A stretch of 64,000 bases of DNA from an uncultured Acidimicrobiia bacterium (GCA_963841465.1 CAWJCQ010000006.1:1168770-1232769), one strand, 5' to 3'; positions 28,054-48,291 are shown, counted from the first letter of the stretch. Numbers and translations: made by a program. The notes: generated by a model not told the origin, from the letters alone.

Positions 28054-29064
28054 TCACTGTGTCGTGGCGTCCTCCTTCGGCTCGTTGATCCACACCGCGG
28101 TGGGCAGCGCCGGCGGTTGCGGTGGCTTGCGGACGAAGCGTTCGGGGTGTGCGGCGTAGGCGTCGTTGAGCACGACAGCACGCTGCTCGCGAATGAACTC
28201 GGCTCGCCCGTAGTGGACGTCGGCGGGGGTGTGGAACCCGATGCCGGAGTGCCGGTGCTCGTCGTTGTACCAGTTGAAGAACCGGCTGCAGAAGGCGTGA
28301 GCGTCCTGGAAGCAGCCGAAGCGGTCGGGGAACTCGGGCCGGTACTTGAGCGTGCGGAACTGGCTCTCGCTGAACGGGTTGTCGTTGCTCACGTGCGGCC
28401 GGCTGTGGCTCTTGGTGACGCCGAGGTCGGCGAGCAAGAAGGCGACGGGCTTGGCCACCATCGGCGAACCACGGTCGGCGTGAATCGTGAGCTGACCATG
28501 CTCGATCCCTTGCTTGGCGACGGTGTCGGCGAGCAGCGCTTCGGCGAGGCGGGCGTTCTCGGCGTGGGCGAGCATCCAGCCCGGCACGTAGCGGCTGAAG
28601 ATGTCGAGGATCACGTACAGGTAGTAGTACGTCCACTTCTGCGGGCCGAGCAGCTTGGTGATGTCCCACGAGTAGACCTCGTTCGGGTTGGCGGCCAGCA
28701 GCTCGGGCTTTTTGGCCGCTGGATGGGTGGCCTGGCGGCGACGCTCGCGGACCTCGTCGTGCTCGCGCAACACCCGGTACATCGTCGGCACCGAGGCCAG
28801 GTAGACGCCCTGATCCAACAGCTTGGCGTAGACGGTGGCGGGCGCCTCATCGACGTGGTCCTCGCTGTTTAGCACCGCCCGCAGCTCCTTGCGCTCGAGT
28901 TCGCTGAGCGCCCGAGGCTGCGGTGTGGGCATCCGCTCGGGCTTCGGGGCCGGGGGGCTCTGGCGGTGCCGGCGATACCAGCGGGCCTGGGCCTCGCCGA
29001 TCGCCGCGCAGGCGTCGCGCACGCCCACCAGCGGTGCGAGCTCGGTGATCGCCTGATCGATCAT
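28054..29064 (-). CDS. IS3-family transposase OrfB (rve/DDE integrase domain)
   Basis: 336 aa. YSWDITKL..., [34 protein letters not shown] motifs of the DDE(35)E integrase core. Confidence 0.9.
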
Positions 29065-29513
29065 CTCGTCTCGCCCCGATCCGTCGGGGCGCTGTCGGTG
29101 GCGAGATCGTCCAACAGCGCCGAGAGCTTTCCCTGGACCTCGATGATCTTGCGGGCCTTGTCCAGCTCGCCGGCCAGCCGCTCGTTCTCACGACGCAACC
29201 GGGCCACCTCGCGATCACGAGGATCGGCCGGCTGGCGGCCGGCGGGCTTGGCCAACGCCGCCAGCGCGCCACGGTCGCGCTGGCGGCGCCACTCCGAGAT
29301 CAGCGACGTGTACAGGCCCTCGCGCCGCAACAGCGCGCCCTTGCCCGCCTTGTCGAGGCGCTCGTACTCATCGAGAACCTGGGCCTTGTACTTCGCCGAG
29401 TACCGACGCGGGCCACGGGCCCGCTCGGGGACCTCGGGATCCGGATCGTTCGTGTCGTCCACGGCGCCAGCCTGGGCGCGCGCGCTCGAAGAATCGTGGA
29501 TGATCGTGCTCAT
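29061..29513 (-). CDS. IS3-family transposase OrfA (HTH plus leucine-zipper)
   Basis: 150 aa. [13 protein letters not shown]...[18 protein letters not shown]. Stop overlaps the orfB start (ATGA). Confidence 0.85.
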
Positions 29514-29759
29514 TCGGGGAACTCCTCCCCACCCTCTCAGCTCAATGAATCGACTGCTCGATCCGCCTCACCCGAGGTTGACACAGAGGGCCAGAAGGGC
29601 CCGGCAACTCGCCGGTCATCAGATCCTCCTGCTCGGTGTCGCTCACACACTCCATCGTCCGCAGACCGAACGAACCCACAGAACCCGACCGCGTACCGTA
29701 CGGACGCTGCACGGATCAGAACTTCGGCGGTCGGTCCGGGAGCGCGGAGAGGCGCCGCA

Positions 29760-30918: not shown

Positions 30919-31129
30919 GCTTCCATTGAACGGCTTGTCCCGGCATCCGTCCACGCACAGGCGGGCACGTGGGGCTCTGGTAACGCTGAACTCGTTGATG
31001 GTGACAGCGATCGGCGCCGCTCGGCCAGTGGCGCTAGCACGCTCTCGGCGCGTCCGTAACGATGCTGGTATCGACGGGTACCTACGACGCAACCGAACGC
31101 CATCGTCGACCTCCTCAAGGTCGATACGT

Positions 31130-31382
31130 AACGGCATACATGTGGAGTGTGGAGCCGTCAACCGGTGCGATTGCCTCTATCGAGGCTGGTCCGGGCCGGA
31201 GGCCCGGACTCGGGGCGCGACGAGTCCGGCGTCGGACGCGTGTGCCGACGCCGCGGCGCGGTCATTCTTCTTGTTGGTCGGGTTGAGCCGGGGTCAAGGC
31301 CGGCCGTAGGCCGCCCGGAGGGCTTGGCCTTGACGCCGGCGATGGTGATGCCCCGAGATCGGGACAATGGTCTCGGCCCCGC
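31130..31382. repeat. copy 1 of a 253-bp perfect direct repeat (non-coding, hairpin-rich)
   Basis: I compared it base by base with 36921-37173 and found it identical. Contains GTGCGA at 31164 and at least 5 stems of 7-9 bp, e.g. GTCCGGGCC/GGCCCGGAC, GGCGTCGG/CCGACGCC, GTCAAGGCC/GGCCTTGAC. Confidence 0.95.
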
Positions 31383-31735
31383 ACGAACATCATCGACCTC
31401 CGCTCGCTCTGCCCCCCGATCATCATCCTCTCGGCACCGTCACCATGCAATGCCCCGACGACCCAACCGGACCGACCCGCTCGGCGCCGGCCGCGCACTC
31501 GCGCACGCCACCTGCATAGCCGGAGCACACCGAACGACGCACCGAACGACGGCAACCCGACCGGACGTCCGCGCACATATCGGCATGGTTGCGTCTCATG
31601 GGAGCTTGAACGGGCGGGTCGCGTGGTCGTTATCGGCCGCCTGCGCGAAGAGCACGTGCCCGCCGAGTTCACGCGCACTCCGGTGCGCTCGACGCGCGAC
31701 GCTCACGGAGTGCTCCCACGGGGTCTCGGTTAGCG

Positions 31736-32280
31736 ATGGTACTCACCGTGGCTGTGTGCGCCACCGAGGACCTTTCGGCCGCCCAGAAGGCCCGCATCAG
31801 CGACCTCTGCAACGCCGCCAACCACACAGACGCATTTCGCCACCTCTTCGTCCTGTACGTCCCGTCCGGCGGCCGGCACTTCCTTGGCTTCGACCACGAC
31901 GGCGTGCTCGCGAGCCACGCGGTGGTCACTACTCGGTGGGCCCAGCCCGGCGGCCACCCGCCCCAGCGCACAGCCTTCGTCGACGCAGTGGCGACAGACC
32001 CGACCCGTCAGCACGTCGGTCTGTCCACTGAGGCCATGGGTCGCCTCGGCCGCGAGCTCCACGACTTGCTCTCGGATGTCTGCAGACCGATCTACGAGGG
32101 TTCTACGAGCGCTTTGGGTGGGAGCTGTGGCGCGGGCCGCTCGCTGGGCGGCGCCACGGCGAGTTGGTGCCCACGCCCGACCAGCAGGGCGTGATGGTGC
32201 TCCGGCTGCCCTCGACCCTGCCACTCGACATCGACGGCTTGCTCAGCATCGAGTGGCAGCTGGACCGCTTCTGGGAATGA
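31736..32280 (+). pseudogene. GNAT N-acetyltransferase, AAC(2')-like, with one apparent frameshift near 32060-32098
   Basis: ORF 31736..32194 supplies ...HAVVTTRW...AFVDAVATDPTRQHVGLSTEAMGRLGREL. Another frame supplies LALGCLQTDLRGFYERFGWELWRGP...TPDQQGVMVLRLP...LSIEWQLDRFWE-stop (32280). The layout resembles AAC(2')-I as I recall it. The span is 545 nt. Confidence 0.6.
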
Positions 32281-32656
32281 ACGCATCCCAGCCGCCGCAG
32301 TGTCTCGGCCACGACCAGGACGGACCAGCCGAAGCTCGTCGCAGACCTGCGCAGCATCCTCCCGTGCGCCGAATGGACGCCAGCAGGCACTGTGGCTGTG
32401 CACCGAACGACGTGCCCGAAGACAAGGAGTCCACGACTCATCGCCGCACATATCGATGCTTCTATGGTTGTCAAGGGTCAATTCTTGGCGACGGTGCGGG
32501 CAGACCAGTGATGGGCCACTCGTGTGAGGGCAGGCTGTTATCAGGCCACGCGATGTCGCGAGAGCGGGTGGAGGTGGCGGGCCGACAGATCGTTATCAGG
32601 ACAGCCGTCGGCGTCGGGCATTTCGAGGGTCAGGCCCGTCACCTCGATCGTGAGCG

Positions 32657-33703
32657 CTAGACGCCGGGGAGGTGGCGATAGACCTCTCGGGCGACGTAGC
32701 GCTTGAGGACGCGCATGATCTCGCGTCTGCTGAGTCCTTGGGCGCTGCGACGTTCGACGTAGGCGCGGGTACGCGGGTCGGAGCTCATGCGGGTGAGCAC
32801 GATGCGCCACAGGGCGTGGTTGGCTTGCCGGTTGCCGCCTCGGTTCAACCGGTGACGGATGGTCTTGCCGGAGGAGGCGTGGATCGGTGCTGCGCCGCAG
32901 AGATGGGCGAAGGCGGCCTCGGAGGTGATCCGCTGGGCGTTGTCGCCGGCGGCGACGAGCAGCATCGCCGCGGTGTGGGGGCCGACGCCGTGCAACTCGA
33001 CGAGGCTCGGTGCCGTCGTGGCGACGAGGGCGGCGAGCTCGTTGTGGAGGCGGGCGCAGTCAGCGTCGATGTCGAGCACGCGGCGGCCGAGAATGTGCAT
33101 GGCCAGCTTGGTGGCGTACACGACCGGGTCGCCGTCGGGGTTGGGACGGAGTCCGGCGGCGGTCCGGCCAAGTGTGTCGGCGGTGACGTCACGGAACCGT
33201 TCCCGCAGCTCATCGGGGGCGCAGAAGCCGAGATGGCGGAGCTGGTTGAGGCACTTGATGCGGGCGTCGCGCCCGGAGCGGAAGGCGACGAGCAGCGCCC
33301 GGATCGCTTCCACGTTGCCGTCGGCGGTCTTCGCCACACCGTGGGCACGACCGCTCAGTGCCGCTCGAGCGGCCTCGATCGCGTCGATGGTGTCGGACTT
33401 GCCATGCTGGCGACGGGCCTGACGGTTGGGCCGGCTCACTTCGAGCACGGCCACCCCGGCGCCACGTAGGAAGCGGGCCAGGCCGGCCCCGTAGGCGCCG
33501 GTGCCTTCCACCTCGACTCGGCACAACGTGCCGAACGAACACGGCCACGCGTGCAGCTCGACGAACCCGGCAGTGGTCGTGGGGAACGACTCGACTGCGA
33601 GCACACCACCGTTGGCGTCCAGCGCGGCGGCGACATGAACATCCAGATGAGTGTCCACCCCACCGGTGATCGAGCGCGTCTCTACGATGATGGTCATCGC
33701 CAT
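32657..33703 (-). CDS. IS110-family transposase (DEDD recombinase), apparently intact
   Basis: 348 aa. N-terminal GGVDTHLDVHVAAALD (DEDD RuvC-like) and C-terminal LCGAAPIHASSGKTIRHRLNRGGNRQANHALW (Transposase_20 motif). Confidence 0.9.
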   Translation of the reverse strand: MAMTIIVETRSITGGVDTHLDVHVAAALDANGGVLAVESFPTTTAGFVELHAWPCSFGTLCRVEVEGTGAYGAGLARFLRGAGVAVLEVSRPNRQARRQHGKSDTIDAIEAARAALSGRAHGVAKTADGNVEAIRALLVAFRSGRDARIKCLNQLRHLGFCAPDELRERFRDVTADTLGRTAAGLRPNPDGDPVVYATKLAMHILGRRVLDIDADCARLHNELAALVATTAPSLVELHGVGPHTAAMLLVAAGDNAQRITSEAAFAHLCGAAPIHASSGKTIRHRLNRGGNRQANHALWRIVLTRMSSDPRTRAYVERRSAQGLSRREIMRVLKRYVAREVYRHLPGV

Positions 33704-34112
33704 CCCTTCTCAGTGAAGTGGTCAAGGGGTGGCACGCACGTCCCGGGAAGGAGACCGTGACGATCGGGCTGCGTCAACAGGCCGATCGATCACCCTCCGG
33801 AACGGGGCGTGCCCATGTTCGGCCCACGACTCCGATCGACAGGCATCTCTCAACGATCACGATGCATCAACAAGTCAGACCGAAGCCGCAGGAGCCGCCG
33901 ACCGTAGCCACCCTCAGCAAGCCAGTGGTGGACCACGAGTAGCGCCCACCTACATACACTGGCATCTCGTTGCTGGGCGTCGGAGCTTCACGTCGACCCG
34001 GCTCGGATGCCCCCTGCCGTCTGTTGACGAGGGTCCTGCCCACGGGTCGGGGCGCGCTCGTCGAGCGAGAACGCACTTCGCTCGTTGGTGGCGCCCGGTA
34101 GAAGGGAGCACG

Positions 34113-34409
34113 ATGGTCGCGTTCAATGAAGTGGTGGAGAAGATCACCGAGGCTGTGCGTCATGTGGAAGCTGACTCCGGCGCGTCGCCGGTGCTGGTGG
34201 CTGTCGTCGGGGAGTTCCAAGCAAAGCTCGCGAAGGCGAGGAAGTCTGCGTCCGGTGGCATCCCCGATCGTGACTCGGTGGTGGAGCTGGAGCAAGCCGG
34301 TGACAGCGCGAAGGTGGCCGCCGAGGCCGATGCCGGGTTGTCGGGCGATGCCCGAGAGTCGGTGCTCGCCGCTCACTTGGCCATCTGCAGACTGAAGGCT
34401 GGCGCCTGA
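34113..34409 (+). CDS. hypothetical small helical protein (98 aa)
   Basis: ATG 34113 is preceded by GAAGGGAG. Sequence MVAFNEVVEKITEAVRHVEADSG...; no known motif recognised. Confidence 0.35.
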   Translation: MVAFNEVVEKITEAVRHVEADSGASPVLVAVVGEFQAKLAKARKSASGGIPDRDSVVELEQAGDSAKVAAEADAGLSGDARESVLAAHLAICRLKAGA

Positions 34410-34562
34410 CCGCACGACGCTGGTGGACCCACGAACGTCGTTGCCGGTACCGGGTTCGGCCGATGGCGACCGGCCAGCAGACGTCGGTCGTCGACCGGTG
34501 AGGGAGCGCGCCCGAACGACCGCACCGCACCGATCGGCACGTCCGTGCGCGCCGAGCTCGGA

Positions 34563-34928
34563 TTATCGATGTCGTTGTCGGACGAACACGGTTCCGCCGC
34601 GTGTGATGAGTTCGCCTCGCCCCAGCGGCCACACCCGTGTCAGGAGTCGGTAGCCGGCGTCGGCGCCGGGGATCTTGGCGAACACTCCCTGGGGCCCACG
34701 AATCATGCGGCCGGTGGCGACGTCATAGCGGGCGCCGTGCCAGGGGCACACCAAGCATCCCTCACGGTCGGTTGATCCGTCGGCAAGATCGGCACCCAGG
34801 TGTCGACAACGGCGGGTCACCGCGAACAGCTCGCCGTTCGCATTCCCGACCGCGTAATCGCCTGCTCCACGGACGACACCAGGCGCCAGCTCGGACGCCG
34901 GCCCCACCTCAACTTCGTTGGCGGTCAT
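34563..34928 (-). CDS. Rieske [2Fe-2S] domain protein
   Basis: 121 aa. CRHLGADL ... CPWHGARYD (CxH / CxxH Rieske ligands). Confidence 0.8.
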   Translation of the reverse strand: MTANEVEVGPASELAPGVVRGAGDYAVGNANGELFAVTRRCRHLGADLADGSTDREGCLVCPWHGARYDVATGRMIRGPQGVFAKIPGADAGYRLLTRVWPLGRGELITRGGTVFVRQRHR

Positions 34929-35186
34929 CGAGTGTCCCTTCGACTTCGCGGCGACGATACCGGCGGGCGGCGATCGTTCGGCGAACCACCACGTCAGCGC
35001 CGCTGACCTCGCTCACCCCAGCGGCCGACACCGGGCCAAGGCACCCCGCGAGCGCGTCCGCACACGTTGCGGCCGGCCGGGCAGGCCGCCTGCGGCACAA
35101 ACCGGCGTCGAACCGAAGTCCGCGCCCACGGGGCCAGACGATGCCGATCGCTCCCAGCTGGTGGCCGCCGACCGTACGATCATCGC

Positions 35187-35444
35187 GTGGCCCACGCCTC
35201 ACCCTCGCCGACACCGAACCCAAACGCAATGAAGTTCACCTTGGACACCACCCTCCCGGATGTGCTCAACGTCGCCACCGCAGAAGCCGCAGCCGGCCAC
35301 CGCTTCGCTGAGGCTGTGTTCGCAGCAGAAGGTGTCGCCTCGATCTACGCAGTGAACGACTTCGTCACGGTCACCCGCCAGCCCGGCTTCGAATGGGATC
35401 CAATCGTGGCAGCAGTCATCGCCGCAGCCGCCACCGCTCTGTGA
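35187..35444 (+). CDS. Nfu/NifU N-terminal (Nfu_N) scaffold-like domain protein
   Basis: GTG 35187 gives VAHASPSPTPNPNAMKFTLD...ASIYAVNDFVTVTR. TPNPNAMKF is the hallmark N-terminus of the Nfu_N domain. Confidence 0.6.
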   Translation: MAHASPSPTPNPNAMKFTLDTTLPDVLNVATAEAAAGHRFAEAVFAAEGVASIYAVNDFVTVTRQPGFEWDPIVAAVIAAAATAL

Positions 35445-36040
35445 CACCGATCCGAGCCCCACTCGACCCGAACAGACCGGCGCGGGCCCCATACTTACGT
35501 TCGACCGCGCCATAACGCTCGCCCCGAACGTCAGCGCCGGCCCGCGCCTCGACGCGCCCTAACAAGCAGGCATCACCGGCGCGGACCGTCGGTGCGCATC
35601 CCGACTGAACCGCCGGGAGCGTTCGGTGCCCACCGCCGTCCCCCGAAGGCGAACGCGGGACTGTCAACGCTCGGCCTGACCTGCGGCCCAGCTCGCTATG
35701 GTTCCCGAACATTCGTTCGTAGTACGTCACCGAGTCCTCGACGGCCAACGGCGCCCGCTCTGTCCGCGCTCACGCTCTTGGTAGAGGTCGGCTTGCTGCT
35801 TCATGCACTACCAAGGGGCGTACGCCGAGTCGCTGTAGCCCTTCGTCGATGGGTAGATCGACTCGTACTCCCTGCGGCGTTGGGCCCAACAGGCCGCCAA
35901 GTATCTCAACAGCAACACAGCCTGTGAGCGATGATGGCGGTCCGCAGCACCCAGCGAAACGGGCCTGGCGGGCGGCCGCTCCGGCGGGCCGCCCCCGCCC
36001 GTGCCAACGACGAGAAGCGGCCACTGCCGGGTGGGTGAGT

Positions 36041-36517
36041 TCAGCCGTTGTCGATCTGGCTGAGCGGCCCCGAGGCCGTGATGGTGACCGTGCCGATCGG
36101 GGAGTCGCCGCAGGCGTCGGTGGCGCTGCCCCTCACCGTGTAGCGGCCCGAGCCGGTGTAGCCCGCCCATTCGCCGGTGCCGTTGCCCAGCACGTACGTG
36201 CCCTTCTCCATGAAGCTGAAGGTGCATTTCTTCTCGCTGAAGTGGTCCACCGAGTGCAGCGGCGCGTGGAACACGGTGATCGTGCCGTTGGCGCCGAAGT
36301 CGAAGAGGTCTTCGGTGTCGCTGATCACGATGTCCGTGCCGGTGTCGTTGATGACGCCGGACGCGGTCACCGGACCGCCACCTTCTTCGGTGATGTCTGC
36401 TATCAGCGTGAACGTCTCGGTGCCGACCTTTGTCGGCGCCGCCGAAGCCTGTCCGCCGACGGTCGCCACTCCCGCAGCGACCACGGCGGCAGAGATCAAG
36501 ACGTGGCGCAAGCGCAT
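36041..36517 (-). CDS. secreted hypothetical protein (signal peptide)
   Basis: ATG 36517 is preceded by CAGGAGGAAC. MRLRHVLISAAVVAAGVATVGGQASA-AP signal peptide. 158 aa. Confidence 0.5.
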   Translation of the reverse strand: MRLRHVLISAAVVAAGVATVGGQASAAPTKVGTETFTLIADITEEGGGPVTASGVINDTGTDIVISDTEDLFDFGANGTITVFHAPLHSVDHFSEKKCTFSFMEKGTYVLGNGTGEWAGYTGSGRYTVRGSATDACGDSPIGTVTITASGPLSQIDNG

Positions 36518-36920
36518 GCTGTTCCTCCTGTGGGATGCCTGATGGATCCGGCCTGTCGCCGCCCCCCAGCGATCCGGACAGGTATCAACGTGCCAACCCC
36601 ACTGCACACCGCCCACGTTCCCGCCCATGCCCGCTCCGCCCTTCGGCCGGTCTCGACAGACCTGGCTGAACCGTACGGCGGCCAGTCCGACCAGTCAAGG
36701 GTGACACGACGACCGACGGAGCCACGACCGGACAGCTCTGTTGTCAAGGATCGCCCCGGCGATTGGCGAGCACAGGGTTGAGGCCGCCTGGATGAAGCTG
36801 CCCGCCAGCGGCGACTCGCCAGCGCCTCCCGCCGGTCCGCGAGTGGGCGCGGCGGCGCCGCACAGCACAGCCGAACGACAGCGCAGAATGTCGGCCGGAC
36901 ACGTAACGGGGGCCGCCCAG

Positions 36921-37173
36921 AACGGCATACATGTGGAGTGTGGAGCCGTCAACCGGTGCGATTGCCTCTATCGAGGCTGGTCCGGGCCGGAGGCCCGGAC
37001 TCGGGGCGCGACGAGTCCGGCGTCGGACGCGTGTGCCGACGCCGCGGCGCGGTCATTCTTCTTGTTGGTCGGGTTGAGCCGGGGTCAAGGCCGGCCGTAG
37101 GCCGCCCGGAGGGCTTGGCCTTGACGCCGGCGATGGTGATGCCCCGAGATCGGGACAATGGTCTCGGCCCCGC
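36921..37173. repeat. copy 2 of the 253-bp perfect direct repeat
   Basis: Identical to 31130-31382. Ends 280 bp from the stop codon of the IS110-family pseudogene. Flanks on both sides are unrelated to those of copy 1, except for an ACGTAACGG just upstream. Confidence 0.95.
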
Positions 37174-37452
37174 CCCTGGGGCGGGGCCTGCTTGCCCTTC
37201 CCCTACTGTCCGCGCTTGGCGTGGTCGTCGGTGCGGTGTGGGTGGGCACGGTGAACCTGGCTTCGGTCCTCGTGCGAGCGAGGGGCGGGCAGCCCGGATG
37301 TCGGGTGCCTGGGCATACCTTCGTCACGCCCGACAATGCGGGGTGAGCATGAAGCCGTACGGTCACGACCACGACCAGCTCACTCATTTGCGTCGACCAC
37401 ACCTGGTGGTGGGTCATGCCGTTCCCGAGCTGCGTCGTGGCCGTGCCCGACA

Positions 37453-38467
37453 TCACGCCGCGTCAGTGGCGAGGCAACGGATCTCACCGTCGCGCAGGCC
37501 GTAGTAGACGAGCGTGAGGAGATGACGGGCCGCGGCGACCCGTCCGATGTTGCGGCCCCGGCGGGCGCCGACACGTGCTTTGACCGAGGCGATCCGCGGG
37601 TCGCGGACCGCCCCGGAGACCGCTTCGACCGCGGCCCAGCGCAGCAGCCGGGAGCCTTGCTTGGTGATGTGTCCACGATGGGTGTGGGCGTCGGACTCGC
37701 GCAGCCGAGGGGTCAGCCCGGCCCACGAGCACAACCGGCGCGGGTTGTCGAACCGGCCGACGTCGCCGATCTCGGGCGACGAACACCGCCGCCAACACCG
37801 GACCGACGCCACGCAACGCCTGCACCGCCTCGTAGCCGGGATGACCCTTCAGCCGACGGTGGATGGCCACGTCGCACTGGGTGATCTCGCGGTCATAGAG
37901 CTCGATCAGGTCACGCAGCGACTCGATCCGATCGACGTACACGTCGCCCAGCTGCAGCCCGTCCAGCCACTGCTGGCCGCCACCGCGCCAGATGTCGTCG
38001 AGCTGCGGGATCACCCCCTCCTTGCCGAGGGTCTGATGGACCTGCTGCTTCAACCCGGACCGCAGCCGACCCAACTTGGCCCGATAGCGGACGATCTCAC
38101 GCAACTGGCGCACCTCGGGCGGTGCCACCCACGCCTCCGGGAGACGACCCAGACGCAGCAGGTCGGCGAGCAGCGTGGCATCGCGGATGTCGTTCTTGAC
38201 CCGCCGGTTCTCGTAGCCGGCGATCCCCAACGGATGGGCCAGATGCAACCGGGCCCCGCACTCGGCGATCACGTCGGCCGCCCAATACCAGCCCCAGCAC
38301 GCCTCCATCGCCACCTCCGCCTCCGGTCCGCCGGCGGCGACGATCTCAGCAGCCAGGTTGGCTGGCGTGTTGTCGATCCGACTCCACGACACCCGCTCGC
38401 CATCCTCGTTCAAAACGACGACAACCGACCGGCGCCGGTGCAGATCGATCCCTACGTACGATCCCAT
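37453..38467 (-). pseudogene. IS110-family transposase with one frameshift near 37790-37812
   Basis: N-terminal YVGIDLHRRRSVVVVLNEDG... through LRGVGPVLAAVFVA is in ORF 37484..38467. IGDVGRFDNPRRLCSWAGLTPRLRESDAHTHRGHITKQGSRLLRWA is in ORF 37453..37812. Confidence 0.8.
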
Positions 38468-38632
38468 GTGAGCCTCCTCGCTCGAGGGTTGGTGTTAAGC
38501 AACCTCAAGCTTCATCCGGAGTAGAGGACCGAACCAACAGCGGGGAGGCTCAACCCTCCGACCAACTCCACATGGCATCATTGATGTCGGAGTGATGACC
38601 CGGTCGAGCGAGGCGACGCGCCGAGCGCTCGG

Positions 38633-39523
38633 TCAGCGGGGGCGGTCGCCGCGAATCGTGATGCGGCGCATGACACGGCGCTGGCCGCGGTAGTCGTGGA
38701 GCGCGAAGTGCTGGACGCTGCGGTTGTCCCACATGGCAACTGATCCGGGCTGCCACCGGAAGCGGCATGTGCGCTCCTCGGCCGTCGCCTGCTTGAAGAG
38801 GAACGCCAGCAGCGCCTTGGACTCGGACCGGTGCATGCCCTTGATGCCGATCGTGAACGCGGGGTTCACATACAAACCCTTACGCCCCGTCTCCGGGTGC
38901 GTGCGTACGACCGGATGCTCCACCCGGCTCGCCGCCGCCTCAACCGCACCGCGCGTCACGATCGCCGAGCTCTGCGTCGAGTACCCGGCGCCGCCGTACT
39001 GCGGACCGGCCGAGTGAATCCCGACGAGACCATCGAGGAGGGTCTTCATCGTGTCGCTGAGCGCGTCGTAGGCCGCGAGCTGGCTGGCGAACAGGGTGTC
39101 GCCGCCGTAGGGCGGCAGCTCGACGGCATACAGGATCGAGCCCAGATCGGGCTCAGGCAGGAACGTCACGTCGCTGTGCCAGCCGCCACCAAAGTTCACC
39201 CGATCGTCGGACTCGGTGACGACGTCGATGATCTCCGGATGCTCGGCGTTCGCGGCGACGTACGGGTGCCTCCCCAGCTCGCCGAACCGGCGTCCGAAAG
39301 CGATCTGCTGCTCCGGCGTCAGCTGCTGATCACGGAAGAAGAGCACCTGGTGCTCGTTGAACGCGCTGCGCAACCGCCCCACGGCGTCGTCGTCGAGCGG
39401 CGCCGCGAGGTCAAGTCCGTGGACGTCGGCGCCGATGACCCCGCTGACGGGAGCGATCTCGAACGTCGGTGCCACGACCCCGATGGTACGACCGGCCGCC
39501 GCCCAGCCAACGACCACCCCCAC
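38633..39523 (-). CDS. TauD/TfdA-family Fe(II)/2-oxoglutarate dioxygenase
   Basis: 296 aa. IGADVHGLDL..., GGGWHSDVTFLPEP (HxD), WQPGSVAMWDNRSVQH, RRVMRRITI. Start may be an internal GTG. Confidence 0.85.
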   Translation of the reverse strand: MGVVVGWAAAGRTIGVVAPTFEIAPVSGVIGADVHGLDLAAPLDDDAVGRLRSAFNEHQVLFFRDQQLTPEQQIAFGRRFGELGRHPYVAANAEHPEIIDVVTESDDRVNFGGGWHSDVTFLPEPDLGSILYAVELPPYGGDTLFASQLAAYDALSDTMKTLLDGLVGIHSAGPQYGGAGYSTQSSAIVTRGAVEAAASRVEHPVVRTHPETGRKGLYVNPAFTIGIKGMHRSESKALLAFLFKQATAEERTCRFRWQPGSVAMWDNRSVQHFALHDYRGQRRVMRRITIRGDRPR

Positions 39524-40712: not shown

Positions 40713-40842
40713 GCCGAACAGCTCCGATCTGATCGGCTAATGGCAACGAAGTTCTGGTTTGCGTCTGACTTCGACGCGGAGGATCCACCGCGAAATGAAC
40801 CAGGGCTGGGAGTCTCCTCGGACGTTCTGAGAGGAGCAGTTC

Positions 40843-41619
40843 ATGTCCGAGGTCAACGCTCGCAGACGGCCGAAGGAGTTGTCGGCCGAGACGAAGTGGG
40901 AGATCTTCTTGCAGGTCACTGCTGGCGAGATCACCCAGGCCGACGCGGCCCGCAGGTGGCAGGTCGATGTCTCCACGGTGATCGGCGTTCGCCGTACCGT
41001 GAAGGACGCCGCCCTCGCCGCGTTGGCGCGGGTGCCGGGCAGGCCGGCCAAGGAGCGGGACTGGCAGCTGGAGGCGGCCCGGGCCGAGATCGGCCAGTTG
41101 ACCGAGGCGATCAAGGCGCAGGCGATCGAGCTGGCGGTCGTGCGGGGAAAGCGGCTGGGGCTGATCGGTCCGCTCCCGGCGCGGGTCCCCGCCTTGGTGA
41201 AGGAGCTGGTCCTCAAGACGGTGGATGAGGCCGTCGCCGACGGGTTCTGCCACACGTGGGCGTGTTCGCTGTGGCGGGTGTCCGACGACCGGGTGCACCG
41301 GTGGCGGGCCCAGCTCCGCGACGCCGGCACGTTGATTGATCGTGCGCCGGGCGGGAACCCGGTGCACGGGATCCTGCCCGCCGAGATCGCCGCCATCTTG
41401 GCGATCGCCGAGCAGTGGGGACCGGTCGATCGGTCCCACCGCAAGCTCGCCCATCGCGGCTCCTACGAGCACCTGGTGTGGGTGGCACCATCCACGTTCC
41501 GCCGGGTTCTGGCTGCTCACGGCCTCGTGCTGCCCGAGCTGTCGACCCGTTCGCTGTCGGTGAAGAAGCCATGGCCGGACTGGCTGGTGTGGGCACCGAA
41601 CCGGATCTGGATCTGGGAC
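40843..41619 (+). pseudogene. IS3-like transposase, 5' portion (HTH/zipper and start of the rve domain)
   Basis: MSEVNARRRPKELSAETKWEIFLQV...PNRIWIWD, followed by unrelated sequence. Joining at D-41619 to 45220 gives IWIWD-THFTNARRAVFAIVDMVSRRW. Confidence 0.75.
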
Positions 41620-42198
41620 GCGGAGCGCCACGAGGCGCTCTTGGACCGTGCGGTGATGGAAGGCACCGCCGTCGGCTTGTCGCAGCAGGCCGGTCGAAGC
41701 TGAGGGCAGCCTGATCCGGGGGACGCCGGGGAGGGTGGCAAGCAGCCCTGACAACGCCGGGACGTGCCAGCACCGTCAGATGGTGCGGGTCCGGCAAGCG
41801 AGACGGGACGGTGTAACGACGGTGAACCAGCGTGAGAACGCCTCTCAAGAAGCATCCACCAGCTCGAACCTGACGGATCGGGGCTGGGTTGCGGCGCGCA
41901 CCCATCCGGCACTTGCTGGGTGGGGAACTCCTTGGCCGGTCAGTGTCGCCGGTCGGGAGGCCACACCGAATGCCTGCGGCGTAGGTGTGGCGATGCCGCA
42001 GGGGCATAGCTGGGCACCACCCCCGTCGAACGGTCCAAGAGTGAACGTGGGAACCACCCCGATGGTCCCTTCCCGGCGCCGGCTGATGCTGTCGGGGTGG
42101 GGCGGAGGACCCGTGGTAGTCCGAGCACGGGAAAGCCGCGCACATGGCGAAGGGGTCCAGCGGATCAGCAGCATCCACGCTGAACGAAGAGGTCGCCG

Positions 42199-43425
42199 GT
42201 GAACATCGGCGCGCCGTGGCCGAGCCTGATCGAGGCGGAGCTGCGGGTACTCGCGATGCAGACGAAGCTGCACCAATGGGCGACCAGTGATCCTGGCCGC
42301 CAGTTCGATGACTTGTTCAACCTCGTCTATGACCCGGCGTTCCTCGTCGTGGCGTGGAGTCGGGTGCGGGGCAACAAGGGAGCACGGACCGCCGGGATCG
42401 ATGGGGTGACACCTCGCTCCATCGTGTTCGGCGCCGGGGAGTTCCTCGACGGGCTGCGAGATGACCTCAAGGCCCGCCGGTTCCACCCGGTCCCGGTCCG
42501 CCAGAAGACGATCCCCAAAGCCGGCGGCAAGGTCCGCAAGCTGGGCATCCCGACTGTCGCGGATCGGGTCGTGCAAGCCGCGTTGAAGCTGGTGCTCGAA
42601 CCGATCTTCGAGGCGGACTTCAAGCCATGCTCGTATGGCTTCCGCCCGAAGCGTCGAGCCCAGGACGCGATCGCTGAGATCCACTTCCTCGGCACACCCA
42701 TTCGGAACTACGAGTGGGTGTTCGAGGCCGACATCAAAGCGTGCTTCGACGAGATCGACCACCCCGCCCTCATGGGCAGGGTGCGACGTCGGATCGGAGA
42801 CAAACGGGTCCTCGGCTTGGTGAAGGCGTTCCTGTCCGCTGGCATCCTCACCGAGGACGCCACCGCCAGGGCGACGATCACCGGCACCCCGCAAGGCGGG
42901 ATCCTCTCACCGTTGTTGGCCAACATCGCCCTGTCCGTGCTGGACGAACACTTCACCGCCAAATGGGAAGCGCTCGGACCGGCATGGACACGCGCCAAGC
43001 GTTGCCGCGCCGGGGAACCGGCCATGCGCCTCGTCCGCTACGCGGACGATTTCGTGGTCATGATCCACGGCACCCGCGACGACGCCGAAGCTCTGTGGGT
43101 CGAGGTCGCAACGGTGCTCGCCCCGATGGGCCTGCGCCTGTCGGAAGAGAAGACGAGGGTCTGCCACATCGATGAGGGGTTCGACTTCTTGGGGTGGCGC
43201 ATCCAGCGTCGCCGCTGGCGAGGCCGAACCGGGAAACGAGCGGTCTACACCTACCCGTCGAAGAAGAGCTTGCTCTCGGTGACGTCCAAAGTCCGATCGC
43301 TCACCGCCCGCCACAAGCATCGAACGCTCGCCGATCTGCTGCGCCGATTGAACCCGGTGCTGCGGGGATGGTGCAACTACTTCCGTCACGGCGTGTCGAG
43401 GTTGTCCCGGAGCCTGTTGAAGTGA
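42199..43425 (+). pseudogene. group II intron reverse transcriptase/maturase, N-terminal 405 aa (cut by IS256)
   Basis: RT domains 0-7 with RYADDFVVMIHG (YADD) and the start of the X/maturase domain LRGWCNYFRHGVS. The ORF then runs into the IS256 end. Confidence 0.85.
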
Positions 43426-44836
43426 GGTGGTGATCCCTCCCCGGGCCGTGCCGTGATGGCAGGGTTCGGGGGTCCATCCAAGACATCCGAAAGGAGAGGG
43501 ATCACCGTGTCCAAGAAGGTACCCGTCGTGAAGATCACGACACCGGAGGCTGCCATCGCGCTGGAGGGTCTGCCCGTGCAGGCGACGGTGGCGATGGCCG
43601 ACGTTGCCGGCGCGTTGCGCGAGGGCCTGCTGGCGTTCGCGACGTCGGCAGGACTGGTGGTGATGCAGCAGATGCTCACCGAGGAGTTGACCGCGATCGT
43701 CGGCCCGAAGCACGCCAAGCTCGGCGCGGAGCGGGTCGGCAACTGGCACGGCACGACCACCGGTCAGGTCGTGCTCGGCTCGCAGAAGGTCAGTGTGCAG
43801 CGGCCGCGGGGCCGCTACGTCGACGGCGGCGAAGTGGAGCTGGGGACGTGGGAGTGCTTCGCCTCCGACGACGTGTTGCGTCAGGTGGTGGTGGAGCGGA
43901 TGCTCGCCGGGGTAGCGACTCGCCGCCACGTCGACGTCACCGAGCCCGTCGGCGTGGAGGGCACGGCGACGTCGAAGTCGGCGGTGTCGCGACGGTTCAA
44001 GGCCGCCACTGAGACGGCGATGGGCGAGCTGCTGGCCCGCGACCTGTCCGAGCTGGAGACCGCGGTGCTGATGATCGACGGGCTCTGTGTCGCCGACCAG
44101 ATGATCGTCGTCGCCCTGGTCATCTGCGCCGACGGGACCAAGGTGCCGGTCGGGCTGAAGCTCGGCGACACCGAGAACGCGGTCGTCGTCAAGGACCTGT
44201 TGGCTGATCTGGTCGCCCGCGGGCTGCGCTACAGCCACGGCATCGTCGCCGTGCTGGACGGCTCCAAGGCGCTGCGCAAGGCGGTCACCAAGGTGTTCGG
44301 CGAACGCGCCCTGGTGCAACGTTGCACGCTGCACAAGAGACGCAACGTGACCGGCTACCTGCCCGTCGGCGAGCGCGACGCGATCGACCAGCGTCTCGCC
44401 CGAGCGTTCGCCGACCCCGACCCAGACAAGGGCCTGCGCGCCTGCCAGGCACTCGCCCGCCAGCTCGAGGGCCGCCACCCCGACGCCGCCGCCTCGCTGC
44501 GCGAGGGCCTCGAGGAGATGTTCACCGTCGCCCGCCTCGGCGTCAGCGGCCGGCTCCGACGGTCACTGACCAACACCAACTGCATCGAGTCGATGTTCTC
44601 CATCGCCCGCACCACCACCGGCCGGGTCAAGCACTGGCGGGACGGCACGATGAAGAAGCGGTGGATCGTTGCCGGCATGCTCGAAGCCGAGCGCTCGTTC
44701 CGTCGCATCAAGGGCTGCGCCGACATGCCCGCCTTCGTCGCCGCCGTCGCCCGGGCCACCAACCCGGAAGCTGTCACACCCACCGACTACTCTGAAGTGG
44801 CCTGAGCAAGTTCGGGATCACCACCGAACTTCAACA
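43415..44836 (+). mobile_element. IS256-family insertion sequence (about 1.42 kb)
   Basis: Inverted repeats TGTTGAAGTGAGGTGGTGATCC (43415-43436) and GGATCACCACCGAACTTCAACA (44815-44836). No clear 8-bp target duplication. Confidence 0.75.
43507..44805 (+). CDS. IS256-family (mutator-type) transposase
   Basis: GTG 43507 follows GAAAGGAGAGGG. ...LMIDGLCVADQMIVVALVICADGTK...NTNCIESMFSIAR...HWRDG are typical IS256 DDE region motifs. Confidence 0.85.
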   Translation: MSKKVPVVKITTPEAAIALEGLPVQATVAMADVAGALREGLLAFATSAGLVVMQQMLTEELTAIVGPKHAKLGAERVGNWHGTTTGQVVLGSQKVSVQRPRGRYVDGGEVELGTWECFASDDVLRQVVVERMLAGVATRRHVDVTEPVGVEGTATSKSAVSRRFKAATETAMGELLARDLSELETAVLMIDGLCVADQMIVVALVICADGTKVPVGLKLGDTENAVVVKDLLADLVARGLRYSHGIVAVLDGSKALRKAVTKVFGERALVQRCTLHKRRNVTGYLPVGERDAIDQRLARAFADPDPDKGLRACQALARQLEGRHPDAAASLREGLEEMFTVARLGVSGRLRRSLTNTNCIESMFSIARTTTGRVKHWRDGTMKKRWIVAGMLEAERSFRRIKGCADMPAFVAAVARATNPEAVTPTDYSEVA

Positions 44837-45113
44837 CGAAGCGGGACATCCTCCGGAGGAGCCGGCGCGGACATTCAGTTACGTCGATCACTTCGCCTTC
44901 TGGCGGATCTTCGGCTGGCTCCGCAAACGACACGCCGGGCTGAACAAACGGGAACTTGTCCGCCGCCACCTCCCACGCTGGGAGATCCGCGACGGCCACA
45001 TCGAGCTGTTCCGGCCGCAACAGGTCGCCATCGAGCGATACCGCTACCGGGGCACCCGTATCCCGACACCATGGACGAGCCTGACGTCAGGATCACCCGC
45101 ACCAGCGGCATGA
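44835..45113 (+). pseudogene. group II intron maturase C-terminal segment
   Basis: My own translation: ...RTFSYVDHFAFWRIFGWLRKRHAGLNKRELVRRHLPRWEIRDGHIELFRPQQVAIERYRYRGTRIPTPW. No HNH endonuclease domain is evident. Confidence 0.7.
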
Positions 45114-45219
45114 ACCGTGGAGAGCCGGATGCGGTGAAAGTCGCTCGTCCGGTTCGGAGGGCGGGCCGGAGAAACCCACCTGGTGAAAGCCGGGCAGGGC
45201 GCTCCGGCCCGACCCCTAC

Positions 45220-45857: not shown

Positions 45858-47546
45858 GACCCGGATATTGCAGGCCGGGTTGTCTGATCGACCGGATTGA
45901 CGCGGCAAGTGCTCCGCCGCCTGGGACGATGTGGATTGCTACATCAAGACCGACCCAGGCAGAGGAGCACCTGACAGGTGAAGGCTAGTGCGACATTGTT
46001 CGATGCCGGGGAGATCATCGCTCGGCCTCGTCGGGAGGTGGCTGCGGTGAAGGCCACGGTCACCGATGACGACGTGACTGGCGTGGCTGGTGCTGTGTTG
46101 TGGGGTCCGCTGCTGGACCGGCTGAACCTGGTCGATGTGGCCGATGCTCGTGGGCTGCGGCCGATCGGGCCGGGCGGCTACAGCGGTGGGGAGTGCTACC
46201 GGACCCTGGTCGAGGTGTTGTTGGCCGGCGGCGAGTTCCTCTCCGACCGGTCGTTGCTGACCGGGGCGACCGAGCAGTTGCGGGGCCAGCACGCCCTTCC
46301 GTCGCACTCCACGCTGTTCCGGTTCTGTGCCGGCGCCGATCTCGGGCGGGCGCAGAAGGCGGCGGCGGTGAATCGCACGATGCTGGCTCGGGCCTGGGCG
46401 ATGGGTGCCGGGCCCGACGGCGGGGTGATCACGATCGACCCGGACGCCACGTTGGTTGACACCTACGGGCCGGGCAAGGAGGGCTCAACGTTCACCTATC
46501 GCGGTGAGGTCGGGCTGTCACCGTTGATCGGGGTGTGCGGCGAGACCGGTGACGTGTTGGCGTTGCACGCTCGCGGTGGCAGCGCCCACCCCGGGCGGGC
46601 GCTGGCCGGGTTCGTGCGTGAGTGCGCCGCAGCGATCCCCGCAGCGGTCCGTGCTGGCAAGAACCTGTGGGTGCGGATCGATTCGGCCGGCTACCAGCAC
46701 GACGTGTTCGCCGCCTGCGAGTCGCTCGGTGCGGTGTTCACGATCACCGCGCCGAACAGGACCAATGTGCGAGATGCGGTGCTCGCGCTGGCCGCCGACT
46801 CGGCCACCGTGTGGACCCCGGCGCTGGGCGCCGAGGCCGAACGAGGGTCCGAGATCGCCGAAACGACGATCGAGGTCGGCTGGCCCCGTCGCCATCAACA
46901 ACCGCGCCGGTTGCGGCTGATCGTGCGTCGTCAGCGCACCAGCGCCGGCGAGCAGCTGTCGTTCGACGACCTCGACGGGTGGCGGTTCCACGCCATCGTC
47001 ACCAACCTGCCGGCGCTGTTCGCCCCCGCCGCTGACGTCGAAGCCCACCACCGGCTACGCGGTGGGATCCCCGAAGACACCATCCGCCAACTCAAAGAGG
47101 ACTTCGGGCTGATCCACGCCCCGGTCCAGAACTTCTTCGGGAACTGGCTGTGGTGGCACGCCTGCGCCCTCGCCCACAACGTCGCCCGCTGGATCCGCGA
47201 CCGGGCACTGCCCCGCGAGTTCCGCCGCTGCCGGGGCAAACGTCTGCGGCTCGCCTTCTTCAACGTCGCCGCCCGCGTCGTCACCCACGCCCGCCAACTT
47301 TGGCTGCGCATCCCCCGCTCCCACACCTGGGCCGACGCCTTCATCGAAGCCCTCACCCGGATCCGAGCACTCCCAGCGTTTGCCTGACCGGCCAGGCACT
47401 CACACCACCCCAGCCCGGACAACCGCAGCGCACACGGTCCCTGGGCCGGCGCGCCCATCAATGACTCGAACATCGTCCCAGCCCTCCGGCCGTCACGATC
47501 GCGACCGCTCATCCCTCCGCCTGGCCGGCCTGCAATATCCGGGTCA
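45858..47546 (+). mobile_element. IS1380-family insertion sequence
   Basis: Inverted repeats CCGGATATTGCAGGCCGG (45861-45878) and CCGGCCTGCAATATCCGG (47525-47542). GTCAGAC lies immediately outside both ends. Confidence 0.7.
45978..47387 (+). CDS. IS1380-family transposase
   Basis: 469 aa, uninterrupted. N-terminal ...VTGVAGAVLWGPLLDRLNLV... and overall layout as I recall for IS1380 DDE transposases. Family call is from memory only. Confidence 0.65.
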   Translation: MKASATLFDAGEIIARPRREVAAVKATVTDDDVTGVAGAVLWGPLLDRLNLVDVADARGLRPIGPGGYSGGECYRTLVEVLLAGGEFLSDRSLLTGATEQLRGQHALPSHSTLFRFCAGADLGRAQKAAAVNRTMLARAWAMGAGPDGGVITIDPDATLVDTYGPGKEGSTFTYRGEVGLSPLIGVCGETGDVLALHARGGSAHPGRALAGFVRECAAAIPAAVRAGKNLWVRIDSAGYQHDVFAACESLGAVFTITAPNRTNVRDAVLALAADSATVWTPALGAEAERGSEIAETTIEVGWPRRHQQPRRLRLIVRRQRTSAGEQLSFDDLDGWRFHAIVTNLPALFAPAADVEAHHRLRGGIPEDTIRQLKEDFGLIHAPVQNFFGNWLWWHACALAHNVARWIRDRALPREFRRCRGKRLRLAFFNVAARVVTHARQLWLRIPRSHTWADAFIEALTRIRALPAFA

Positions 47547-48200
47547 GACACGCCTCAGTTTGCCCACCGAGGCGTAATCATCGTCGCGCCTCAGCACACC
47601 GCGCACCTCGGCGGCCAGCTGCAGGTAGTCGCGATCCAGGGCGCGCAACAGCTTGCGGATGGCCGAACGCAGCTGCGTCACCGTGTCCTGCGTGGACACT
47701 GCGTCATAGATCGGCGTCGAGTCCAACACCCGCACCCGGTTGCCCATCACCCCCGCCTCGCGTGCGGCAACCTTGGTGTCCTCCAAGAACCGCTTGTCCC
47801 TCCCAACGGTGCGCAAGCGATTGCGCTGACCCACCAGCGTCGTCGGATGGAACGCCACATAGCCGGCATCCACCCCAGCCGCCGCCTGCCATCGCAGATC
47901 GCACTCCAGACGGTCGACCGCCTCCTGATCCGACAAGCCCTCATAGGCCTGGAGCACCATCGTCGTGGCCAGCACCCACGCTGGGATCGTCGGCCGGCCC
48001 CGCCGCGAGACCTTGTAGCAGTCGGCGAAGTAGTCACCCGGGAAGATCCGCTCGCCGTGATCAGCCAACAACCGGTACACACCCCTGAGCCGCTCGCCCA
48101 ACAACTCGCGAGGGTTGTCGAACCGCTGCAACACCGACACCATGCCCAACGCCACGACCCAAGTCTGTTTTCGCGAGACTCCCCAGTGGTGGATGGTCAC
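47544..48200 (-). pseudogene. IS5/IS1182-family transposase, N-terminal fragment
   Basis: 218 aa. YKVSRRGRPTIPAWVLATTMVLQAYEGLSDQEAVDRLECDLRWQAAAG is the InsH-type N-terminal domain. The DDE part is missing; truncated next to the IS1380 end. Confidence 0.65.
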
Positions 48201-48291
48201 CCGACTACTTCAGGGCTCACCTAGACACTCAACCCAAGAGCCCGGTGGGGAATAACGCCGACGCCGGGCTAGGGAATAGCGGCGGCGTTGA

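Follow-up and report, generated by a model that had tools for sequence, protein, structure and literature searches.

An exact 253-bp repeat in an uncultured Acidimicrobiia bacterium is very probably the right-hand end of an IS1111-group insertion sequence

Insertion sequences of the IS1111 group are described as having sub-terminal inverted repeats, a 7-bp left extension, a long non-coding region 3′ of the gene and a transposase of 330–350 aa (PMC11187229; PMC11208160). For assignment to this group we looked for sub-terminal inverted repeats of 7–17 bp, a left extension of about 7 bp and the transposase motif GL-P----S(t)G, and for a seekRNA or bridge RNA we looked for short stretches matching both the target strands and the donor ends. 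If the element works as its family does, a seekRNA or bridge RNA transcribed from the 3′ non-coding region would be loaded onto a DEDD (RuvC-like) recombinase, which would circularise the element by joining its right end to its left and then insert the circle into a short RNA-specified target without target duplication. In the 64-kb stretch of DNA analysed here (the window), a 253-bp unit that occurs twice is very probably the right-hand end of a minus-strand insertion sequence (IS) of this group, 1,661 bp long, copy 1 of the unit being a leftover stub (Table 1).

The two copies are 100% identical over 253 nt, with 0 nt of identity beyond either edge, and blastn against the whole 64-kb window returned these two only, confirming the sharply bounded exact repeat that an earlier note on this DNA had described. 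The unit has a G+C content of 70% (window, 69%) and folds more stably than its dinucleotide shuffles on both strands (z = −3.7 for plus, −4.6 for minus); it has several stems of 7–9 bp, in line with the earlier description, and the claim that it holds no credible ORF agrees with the lack of any significant Pfam match among the ORFs overlapping it. GTGCGA is indeed present near the left edge, on the plus strand from base 36 (35 nt from the edge). The sequence said to be shared just upstream of each copy, ACGTAACGG, does lie 12 nt upstream of copy 2 (36901–36909), but at copy 1 (31126–31134) it runs across the boundary, so that copy 1 reads ACGT-AACGG... and copy 2 ACGT-AACGG-GGGCCGCCCAG-AACGG.... 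Terminal inverted repeats are absent from the unit taken alone, as had been stated; however, inside each copy lies one arm of a sub-terminal inverted repeat of 10 bp, which pairs with an arm at 38565–38574.

Table 1. Coordinates of the features discussed, counted from the first letter of the window
Feature	Position	Strand	Basis
Complete IS1111-group (IS110-family) insertion sequence, 1,661 bp	36921–38581	−	Homology to related contigs; flank divergence
Left terminal extension ATGATGC (7 nt), before left inverted repeat	38575–38581	−
Left sub-terminal inverted repeat CATGTGGAGT	38565–38574	−	Common to all close relatives; flanks diverge just outside
IS transposase gene	37453–38467	−	Identical to intact 337-aa P0006 save for a 1-nt frameshift at about 37773–37781
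Best candidate seekRNA/bridge-RNA guide region, outside repeat	37238–37393	−	Most conserved part of 3′ non-coding region
Perfect 11-bp hairpin GGCCCCGCCCC-TG-GGGGCGGGGCC in complete IS	37166–37188		Read from sequence
Repeat copy 2, last 253 bp of IS	36921–37173	−	Identity to copy 1; related contigs
Three-way-junction motif (57 nt), copy 2	37076–37133	−	Covariance model R1, 72 bits
CCGACCAAC, complementary to GTTGGTCGG (38558–38566, just inside left inverted repeat)	37064–37072	−	Inside repeat
Right sub-terminal inverted repeat ACTCCACATG in copy 2, then terminal extension TATGCCGTT	36930–36939	−
Repeat copy 1, very probably solo right-end remnant of second copy of same IS	31130–31382	−	Identity to copy 2
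Three-way-junction motif (57 nt), copy 1	31285–31342	−	Covariance model R1, 72 bits
Right inverted repeat in copy 1	31139–31148	−
CMD-family gene, one side of copy 1	30592–about 31060	−
Frameshifted GNAT-like gene, other side of copy 1	31610–32280	+
Second IS110-family transposase gene, outside the repeat's element	32657–33703	−	Pfam, both domains; NF033542, 151 bits

From the related contigs, it is clear that copy 2 is part of a larger element. The contig L001 aligns with window positions 38582 to 36913 in an unbroken DNA alignment at 90.6% identity that passes straight across the repeat, and L002–L007 and L015 show 79–87% DNA homology to the 1,661-bp IS and have both ends in common. In more than 10 independent insertions, the flanks start to diverge just beyond ATGATGC-CATGTGGAGT at the left end and ACTCCACATG-TATGCCGTT at the right. 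The IS has 114 nt of non-coding sequence 5′ of its transposase gene and 532 nt 3′ of it, and the 10-bp pairing between its sub-terminal repeats is kept in the relatives; distant relatives have sub-terminal repeats of 11–16 bp, and most of 80 more distant relatives carry such inverted repeats with the right arm about 400–475 nt past the stop codon. No direct repeat that could be a target-site duplication was found flanking the 1,661-bp IS. The candidate crossover dinucleotides are GT or AT, and the family consensus of the right flank is TC[T/G]GGGGCGG. The earlier note had treated the repeat as an independent unit and had named the end of a longer known IS as the outcome that would speak against this; the 1,661-bp alignment of the relatives gives just that outcome, since copy 2 forms the final 253 bp of a complete IS and copy 1 is very probably a stub. 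The proposed link to IS110 thus holds in that the repeat lies in the 3′ non-coding region of an IS1111-type element, but not in the sense of a module in its own right.

The transposase gene is interrupted by a frameshift, and its two Pfam domains, DEDD_Tnp_IS110 (PF01548, E = 1.4e-17) and Transposase_20 (PF02371, E = 7.7e-13), fall in adjacent frames. A tblastn search with P0006 gave 100% identity, with aa 1–229 in one frame and aa 232–337 in the next. The intact P0006, which scores 218 bits on NCBIfam NF033542 (cut-off 140), is listed for the same 1.63-Mb contig as P0001, a product of the window itself. After frameshift correction, the 3′ end of the gene is 279 nt from the repeat edge, in good agreement with the distance of about 280 bp given earlier for an IS110-family gene. 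The C-terminal motif of P0006, GLTPRLRESD, has S then D where the IS1111 motif has G, and SD is also found in the relative L124. The second IS110-family transposase in the window shows no significant similarity to that of the repeat's element.

The unit contains a 57-nt three-way junction, in which an outer stem formed by GTCAAGGCC/GGCCTTGAC and CCGG/CCGG encloses the two hairpins GCCC-TCC-GGGC and GGCC-TAC-GGCC. The motif shows covariation and in part bears out the earlier suggestion of an unknown structured RNA. No Rfam 15 match to the motif was found in the window or at 14 carrier loci (E ⩽ 1). The junction also occurs 3′ of the transposase genes of IS3-like, IS481-like and other IS110-type elements, being downstream and in the same sense in 71 of the 71 transposase-linked cases, and it is present in addition at sites without a transposase, some of them intergenic. 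It is missing from the close relatives L002–L006 and L015, meaning that it is either dispensable or that those copies are decaying. Our best guess is that the junction and the hairpins serve as a structured 3′ cap or terminator of the transposase/seekRNA transcript. The 253-bp repeat is an ordinary IS end, though one holding a folded motif common to unrelated IS. In transposition, it would provide the donor end, namely the right sub-terminal inverted repeat and the terminal extension, and would also provide a run of hairpins including the conserved junction.

Copy 1 has the right end of the IS and nothing more. Upstream of it on the IS strand, nothing resembling a left end or a transposase was found (the best left-end alignment is 10 nt), the conserved guide-like region is absent beside it, and no further pieces of the 1,661-bp IS are present within the 64-kb window. 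Most likely, copy 1 is the remnant of a second, recently inserted IS copy that underwent a deletion, in which the left end and the transposase gene would have been lost together with the first 279 nt of the 3′ non-coding region. The breakpoint (37173/37174 in the complete IS) falls inside one arm of the 11-bp hairpin, which is present in L001, L007, L129, L145 and L176. The 100% identity indicates that the remnant is recent, or that it was homogenised by gene conversion. The right-flank sequence beside copy 1, TACGTATCG, does not follow the family consensus, so the insertion that gave rise to it may have been non-standard. From about 22 to 59 kb, the window is dense with IS elements and pseudogenes and also contains a disrupted group II intron; in such IS-crowded surroundings remnants are to be expected. 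The solo copy should be immobile, since left end, transposase and conserved guide-like region are all missing, yet its 253 bp may still support homologous recombination with copy 2.

Could the unit instead encode the guide RNA (seekRNA/bridge RNA) of the IS, with copy 1 as a functional extra copy of that gene? The unit is highly structured and lies in the non-coding DNA 3′ of the transposase gene, the part of IS1111-type elements to which seekRNAs map, and CCGACCAAC inside it is complementary to the left end, which means that part of a functional RNA may sit inside the repeat. This complementarity extends over 8 nt in L001 and shows a compensatory change in L007 (ACCAGCT/AGCTGGT) at the same relative position, in three elements only, and CCGACCAAC is a possible donor-recognition or 5′/3′ pairing element. 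A second segment just 5′ of the three-way junction, GGCATCAC, is complementary to the left terminus (G/A)TGATGCC, but the match is weak in L001 and L007. The universally conserved part of the non-coding region, however, is the candidate guide region listed in Table 1, which lies upstream of the unit and is kept in every close relative, even those without the three-way junction. It includes GGTATGCC (37312–37319), identical to the right-end terminus, and AGGTATGCC in the non-coding region likewise matches the right-end terminus (8–9 nt) in all six elements examined. The non-coding candidates that match the flanks are also upstream of the unit; these matches, of 8 nt for the window's element, 13 nt for L001 and 11 nt (with a compensatory change) for L007, lie at inconsistent distances from the junction between element and flank. 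L002–L006 and L015 are without most of the unit's first 160 nt and still have the same ends and similar target flanks. Furthermore, the stems of the unit are perfect hairpins with 3–8-nt loops, unlike the large internal guide loops of bridge RNAs, and a search for sigma-70-type promoters found none. A guide gene coinciding with the repeat, the module suggested earlier, is thus unlikely, and the best candidate for the seekRNA is the region upstream of it.

An independent insertion at copy 1 would be expected if the unit were a non-autonomous hitchhiker moved in trans by the IS recombinase, and for this there is a precedent in ISPpu9, whose sRNA module is bounded by IS end-box copies, has three unlinked solo copies and forms module-only minicircles (PMC12288879). 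At copy 1 the right-end junction is authentic and the right flank has a CGTTCGG-like motif as in other family members, and the middle of the non-coding region is present in some close relatives and missing from others. Such a mini-element would need a second end, but no equivalent of the A′ box (ATGATGC-CATGTGGAGT) is found at the unit's inner edge, either from 37174 onward or beside copy 1, where the left end and the left inverted repeat are both lacking. Rather than marking a module boundary, the inner edge cuts through the middle of a hairpin arm. What the relatives have or lack is most readily explained by two internal deletions with end-points unlike the copy 1 breakpoint, and there is a single solo copy in 64 kb. 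We consider the mini-element put forward in the earlier note very unlikely.

Still less probable is a simple segmental duplication, or a gene-conversion tract, unconnected to transposition. In its favour are the identity of the two copies, their direct orientation at a distance of 5.8 kb and an extra ACGT that they share past the left edge once a 16-nt indel is admitted. Against it, both copies have one edge within 1 nt of an IS terminus defined by more than 10 independent insertions in other genomes, and past that edge their sequences are not homologous. A truncated group II intron 5′ domain, suggested by GTGCGA and by a group II intron elsewhere in the window (RF00029, 45120–45219, the window's sole intron match; reverse transcriptase/maturase gene, 42184–43425), is rejected with near certainty, since 36700–37500 gives no Rfam group II match on either strand (D1–D4, domain V) at E ⩽ 10, GTGCGA is on the strand antisense to the containing IS, homology to IS copies covers the whole unit, and the unit has no similarity to the window's intron region.

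Taken together, the right-hand IS end with its leftover stub can be compared with several known systems. The element resembles the IS1111 group (ISEc11, ISPa11, ISKpn4, IS4321/IS5075) in its DEDD plus Transposase_20 recombinase of 337 aa, its 10-bp sub-terminal inverted repeats and 7-nt left extension, its short 5′ end and long 3′ non-coding region (114 versus 532 nt), the lack of a visible target duplication, the similar short right-flank sequences at independent insertions, and a non-coding segment identical to the right-end terminus. It departs from the group in its C-terminal GLTPRLRESD, which is off the GL-P----S(t)G motif, and in its three-way junction, which is common to other IS families; in ISEc11, moreover, a 270-bp fragment (bp 1127–1397) with the non-coding region is sufficient in trans, whereas the region here is 532 nt. 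ISPpu9/MITEPpu9 (ssr9) of Pseudomonas putida KT2440 is likewise an IS110-family system with a structured segment 3′ of the transposase that also occurs solo elsewhere, but MITEPpu9 has both IS end boxes (A′/B′) and its own minicircles, while copy 1 has the right end only and an inner edge inside a hairpin. The junction motif is similar to REP/BIME sequences in being short, G+C-rich, strongly folding and present at many unrelated genomic sites; unlike them, it is a part of IS elements and hence not a target for these, and no association with a RAYT-type transposase was seen. Copy 1, for its part, resembles the solo IS-end remnants of IS-rich genomic islands, which keep one authentic terminus and its junction with the rest gone, and from which copy 1 does not differ in any essential respect.

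The 253-bp repeat forms the right-hand terminus of an insertion sequence (IS) of the IS1111 type, of which the window contains one full, frameshifted copy and one stub. The earlier note had described an exact 253-nt duplication with abrupt edges, and this is correct: the two segments match base for base, the identity extends 0 nt on either side, and a sensitive blastn search of the whole 64 kb gave no third copy. Each copy is located 3′ (in the minus-strand sense) of an IS110-family transposase gene; the two genes show no relationship to each other, and the repeat does not link them. The identities that had been favoured reduce to the right end of this IS, and the link to the IS110 family stands. 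A group II intron identity was rejected by the Rfam search, in which the repeat had no match, whether the gathering cut-off or an E-value cut-off was applied. Compared with shuffled controls, the unit has a more stable fold on each strand (z = −3.7 and −4.6), and Pfam gave no significant match for the ORFs that overlap it. The 21-mer GTCATTCTTCTTGTTGGTCGG, taken from mid-unit in a stretch that proved variable, had 0 exact matches in genome_contigs and metagenome_contigs; in the plasmid collection, blastn of the unit gave chance 50-nt matches only, and blastn of both IS regions only matches of about 67% to transposase coding sequence.

The limits of the element are clear from its relatives. A metagenome contig (L001) encoding an 84% identical transposase aligns continuously with window positions 38582 down to 36913 (90.6% identity), straight across repeat copy 2, and both ends are common to seven more close relatives (L002-L007 and L015). 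Flank divergence starts just beyond ATGATGC-CATGTGGAGT at the left end and just beyond ACTCCACATG-TATGCCGT(T) at the right end; since more than ten independent insertions diverge at these points, the element spans 36921-38581, or 1,661 bp. Among more distant relatives (n = 80), most have sub-terminal repeats, with the right arm about 400-475 nt past the stop codon.

Features of the insertion sequence, the repeat and the neighbouring mobile elements
Feature	Position	Strand	Remarks
Repeat copy 1	31130-31382		stub
Repeat copy 2	36921-37173		right end of the IS
Three-way junction, 57 nt	37076-37133; 31285-31342 (copy 1)	minus	inside the repeat
DEDD_Tnp_IS110	37484-38467	minus	Pfam; one reading frame of the gene beside copy 2
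Transposase_20	37453-37848	minus	Pfam; second reading frame of the gene beside copy 2
IS inverted repeats			10 bp, sub-terminal; CATGTGGAGT left, ACTCCACATG right
IS left extension			7 nt, ATGATGC
IS non-coding ends			114 nt at the 5′ side, 532 nt at the 3′ side
Second IS110-family gene	32657-33703	minus	unrelated to the transposase beside copy 2
Unoccupied CACCGAACGAC motifs	31528-31550; 32401-32411	plus	near copy 1; about 250 nt 3′ of the second IS110-family gene
HTH_32 protein	40831-41703		in the cluster bracketed by the 505-bp inverted repeat
IS4-like DDE transposase	45975-47387		in the cluster bracketed by the 505-bp inverted repeat
DUF772 transposase	47544-48209		in the cluster bracketed by the 505-bp inverted repeat
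Intron reverse transcriptase/maturase ORF	42184-43425		directly followed by the next feature
Mutator-family (IS256-type) transposase gene	43426-44805		
Intron domain V/VI	45120-45219		RF00029, 57.6 bits

The transposase gene beside copy 2 is read in two frames. A protein search returned an intact 337-aa transposase (P0006), recorded on the 1.63-Mb contig that also carries the 327-aa product of the window itself. Residues 1-229 and 232-337 of P0006 are encoded with 100% identity by the window gene in successive frames, indicating a single 1-nt frameshift near 37773-37781. P0006 scores 218 bits against NCBIfam NF033542 ("IS110 family RNA-guided transposase"), for which the cut-off is 140. A scan of 36600-38700 for sigma-70-type promoters found none; TTGACG-17 nt-TATGCC is present at the right end, its second hexamer falling short as a −10 box. 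On the plus strand, terminator-like hairpins with T-tracts (37032-37063) lack conservation among the relatives.

Copy 1 has an authentic right terminus (…TATGCCGTT, then flank), and its inner end is at the position equivalent to 37173/37174, which in the complete IS falls within one arm of a perfect 11-bp hairpin (37166-37188). On the IS strand, the sequence upstream of copy 1 resembles neither the transposase gene nor the left end, nor does it resemble the remaining non-coding region, and no other pieces of the IS are found in the window. Most simply, copy 1 would be a right-end remnant standing alone after a deletion with an end-point in a strong hairpin. An alternative is a case like ISPpu9/MITEPpu9, where a 3′ module that has a copy of each IS end at its borders is self-mobile (PMC12288879); here the 253-bp unit would likewise move alone as a 3′ module, but its inner edge is without a left-end-like box, and such mobility is thus unlikely. 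Truncation of copy 1 by insertion of the second IS110-family element is also unlikely, because no other fragment of the IS is present in the window, and a direct truncation by it is ruled against by a GNAT-like gene with coding signal that lies between the two on the plus strand. This weakly GNAT-like ORF (31610-32280) has a codon-position G+C signal that changes frame near 32100-32190, which suggests a frameshifted pseudogene beside copy 1. The two direct 253-bp repeats bracket a 5.8-kb interval, which homologous recombination could delete.

The right flanks of the family share GT|TC(T/G)GGGGCGG, followed 30-55 nt further by one or two CGTTCGG(T/G)G motifs; the flank of copy 1 (TACGTATCG…GGCGTTCGGTTGCG) fits this pattern only loosely. 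CACCGAACGAC motifs recur in right flanks from different genomes (L001, L002, L005, L129, L145, L176 and L199). These motifs (equivalent to GTCGTTCGGTG) are often tandem, about 12 nt apart, 30-55 nt past the family's right end. Exact CACCGAACGAC occurs three times in the window, always near copy 1 and the other IS110-family gene, and the motifs may form part of a clustered target.

In an alignment of close relatives, the best-conserved non-coding part of the IS is 37238-37393, upstream of the repeat, and it is retained even where about 145 nt of the mid non-coding region has been lost. Within it, AGGTATGCC equals the right-end terminus in 6/6 elements examined, and segments near AGGTATGCC match left flanks: the match is 8 nt long in the window and 13 nt long in L001, and in L007 (another close relative) it covers 11 nt with a compensatory change; the distances to the junction are inconsistent. 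The L007 left flank has an 11-nt perfect complement to its own non-coding segment (CGGGCAACCCG/CGGGTTGCCCG), the equivalent 13-nt match in L001 has a covarying base, and the L007 element sits centrally in a palindrome, GCATCCC…GGGATGC (flanks about 2361-2395 and 4034-4050). The 253-bp repeat itself contains CCGACCAAC (37064-37072), whose complement GTTGGTCGG is found just internal to the left inverted repeat; this complementarity is kept in L001 and, via a compensatory change, in L007. Judging from these sequence comparisons, the core of the guide RNA most likely lies outside the repeat, which may still contain a portion of the functional RNA. The family offers natural variants with the mid 3′ non-coding region present or missing, the same ends and similar targets, and such length variants could help to define the minimal seekRNA (guide RNA) of the RNA-guided IS110/IS1111 recombinases.

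Distant relatives (about 60-65% protein identity) share almost none of the non-coding region except for a 78-94% identical patch, which is the 57-nt three-way junction. Covariation was assessed in 29 sequences selected by transposase similarity, independently of the motif. Changes on both sides are seen in 9/21 pairs (shuffled mean 4.1, with 0/500 shuffles reaching 9), the covariation score is 0.158 vs 0.063 in shuffles, and every measure falls when the partner columns are slid. A U·G pair in 23/29 sequences would be a C·A mismatch on the opposite strand, which points to the transposase-sense strand. No Rfam family matches the motif in the window or at 14 other loci, and we found no described RNA motif common to IS3 and IS110 elements in the literature.

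The covariance model of the junction detects only the two repeat copies in the window, and 35/82 IS1111-type loci (one cut off by a contig end), always in the sense orientation and, where spot-checked, about 260-320 nt past the stop codon. L002-L006 and L015, all of them close relatives, lack the motif. The same outer stem is seen at 17 or more further loci, with a compensatory change (GAC/GTC, GGT/ACC) and a different interior. This variant module (L028, L029, L033, L035, L037, L048, L051, L059, L061, L066-L071, L075, L079) lies about 270 nt past the transposase stop, with the outer stem GTCAAGAC/GTCTTGAC or GTCAAGGT/ACCTTGAC; its interior, CGTCCTCGC-TACG-CTGCGGGCG, resembles the junction-flanking sequences of the IS3-type rod, as if parts were permuted.

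An exact 21-mer of the motif recovered at least 120 metagenome loci (L083-L202), a census biased by the exact-word search. Among the matches listed, 49 are preceded on the same strand by an IS3-family orfB that stops 39-54 nt before the motif, 21 have an IS110-family gene and one has an IS481-like gene; 36 are without a transposase within 700 nt, and 13 more are of undetermined context. The motif is internal to the IS3 elements, about 130 nt ahead of the right inverted repeat, and further pairing encloses it in a long rod-like fold situated between the orfB stop codon and that repeat. Some of the transposase-less instances border other conserved repeat units; a convergent small HTH gene adjoins one group, and another group lies upstream of a LexA-box promoter. 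At five transposase-less loci (L121, L133, L161, L091, L169), repeated GCCCTGAGC(C/T)TGTCGAAGGGC hairpins precede the motif, which is followed by a LexA-box-like TCGAAC-N4-(C/G)TTCGA, a TACAAT −10 box and a gene start. The window's own IS3-family element (28054-29567, minus strand, 1.6 kb from copy 1; rve/rve_3 orfB, weak HTH_Tnp_1 in orfA) does not carry the motif.

The motif is thus located 3′ of transposase genes, in the same sense, in no fewer than three unrelated families of IS (IS1111/IS110, IS3 and IS481-like). That it is the core of an undescribed structured-RNA module, shared horizontally among the mobile elements of soil Actinomycetota, is a tentative proposal that we consider rather doubtful. 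It might act as an accessory RNA of general use to IS elements, such as a 3′-end protector/terminator or a host-factor recruiting site; alternatively, it could be a selfish hitchhiker. For the motif itself, our best guess is a role as 3′ cap or terminator at the RNA level, or else as a module that hitchhikes. If the wider pattern holds, unrelated Actinomycetota IS families share one small folded motif 3′ of their transposase genes, which would point to a shared requirement or to an RNA that hitchhikes. What remains of interest is this cross-family junction, together with the natural length variants of the 3′ non-coding region.

The surroundings are rich in IS elements: at a G+C content of 69% for the window, the stretch between about 22 and 59 kb shows a weaker coding signal and many transposase genes. 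A 505-bp inverted repeat (40754-41258 and 48292-48796, 99.4% identical) brackets a cluster of mobile-element genes, and a group II intron (42184-45219) is seemingly interrupted, its domain V/VI match appearing only beyond the Mutator-family transposase gene.

For annotation, an apparent mystery repeat becomes part of a defined, uncatalogued IS1111-group element. The hallmarks of that group are sub-terminal repeats, a long non-coding region 3′ of the gene, a 7-bp left extension, a transposase of 330-350 aa and no target duplication (PMC11187229; PMC11208160). The window IS resembles the IS1111 group in these published hallmarks, with one feature that is not exact: its C-terminal motif is GLTPRLRESD, whereas GL-P----S(t)G is expected for the group.
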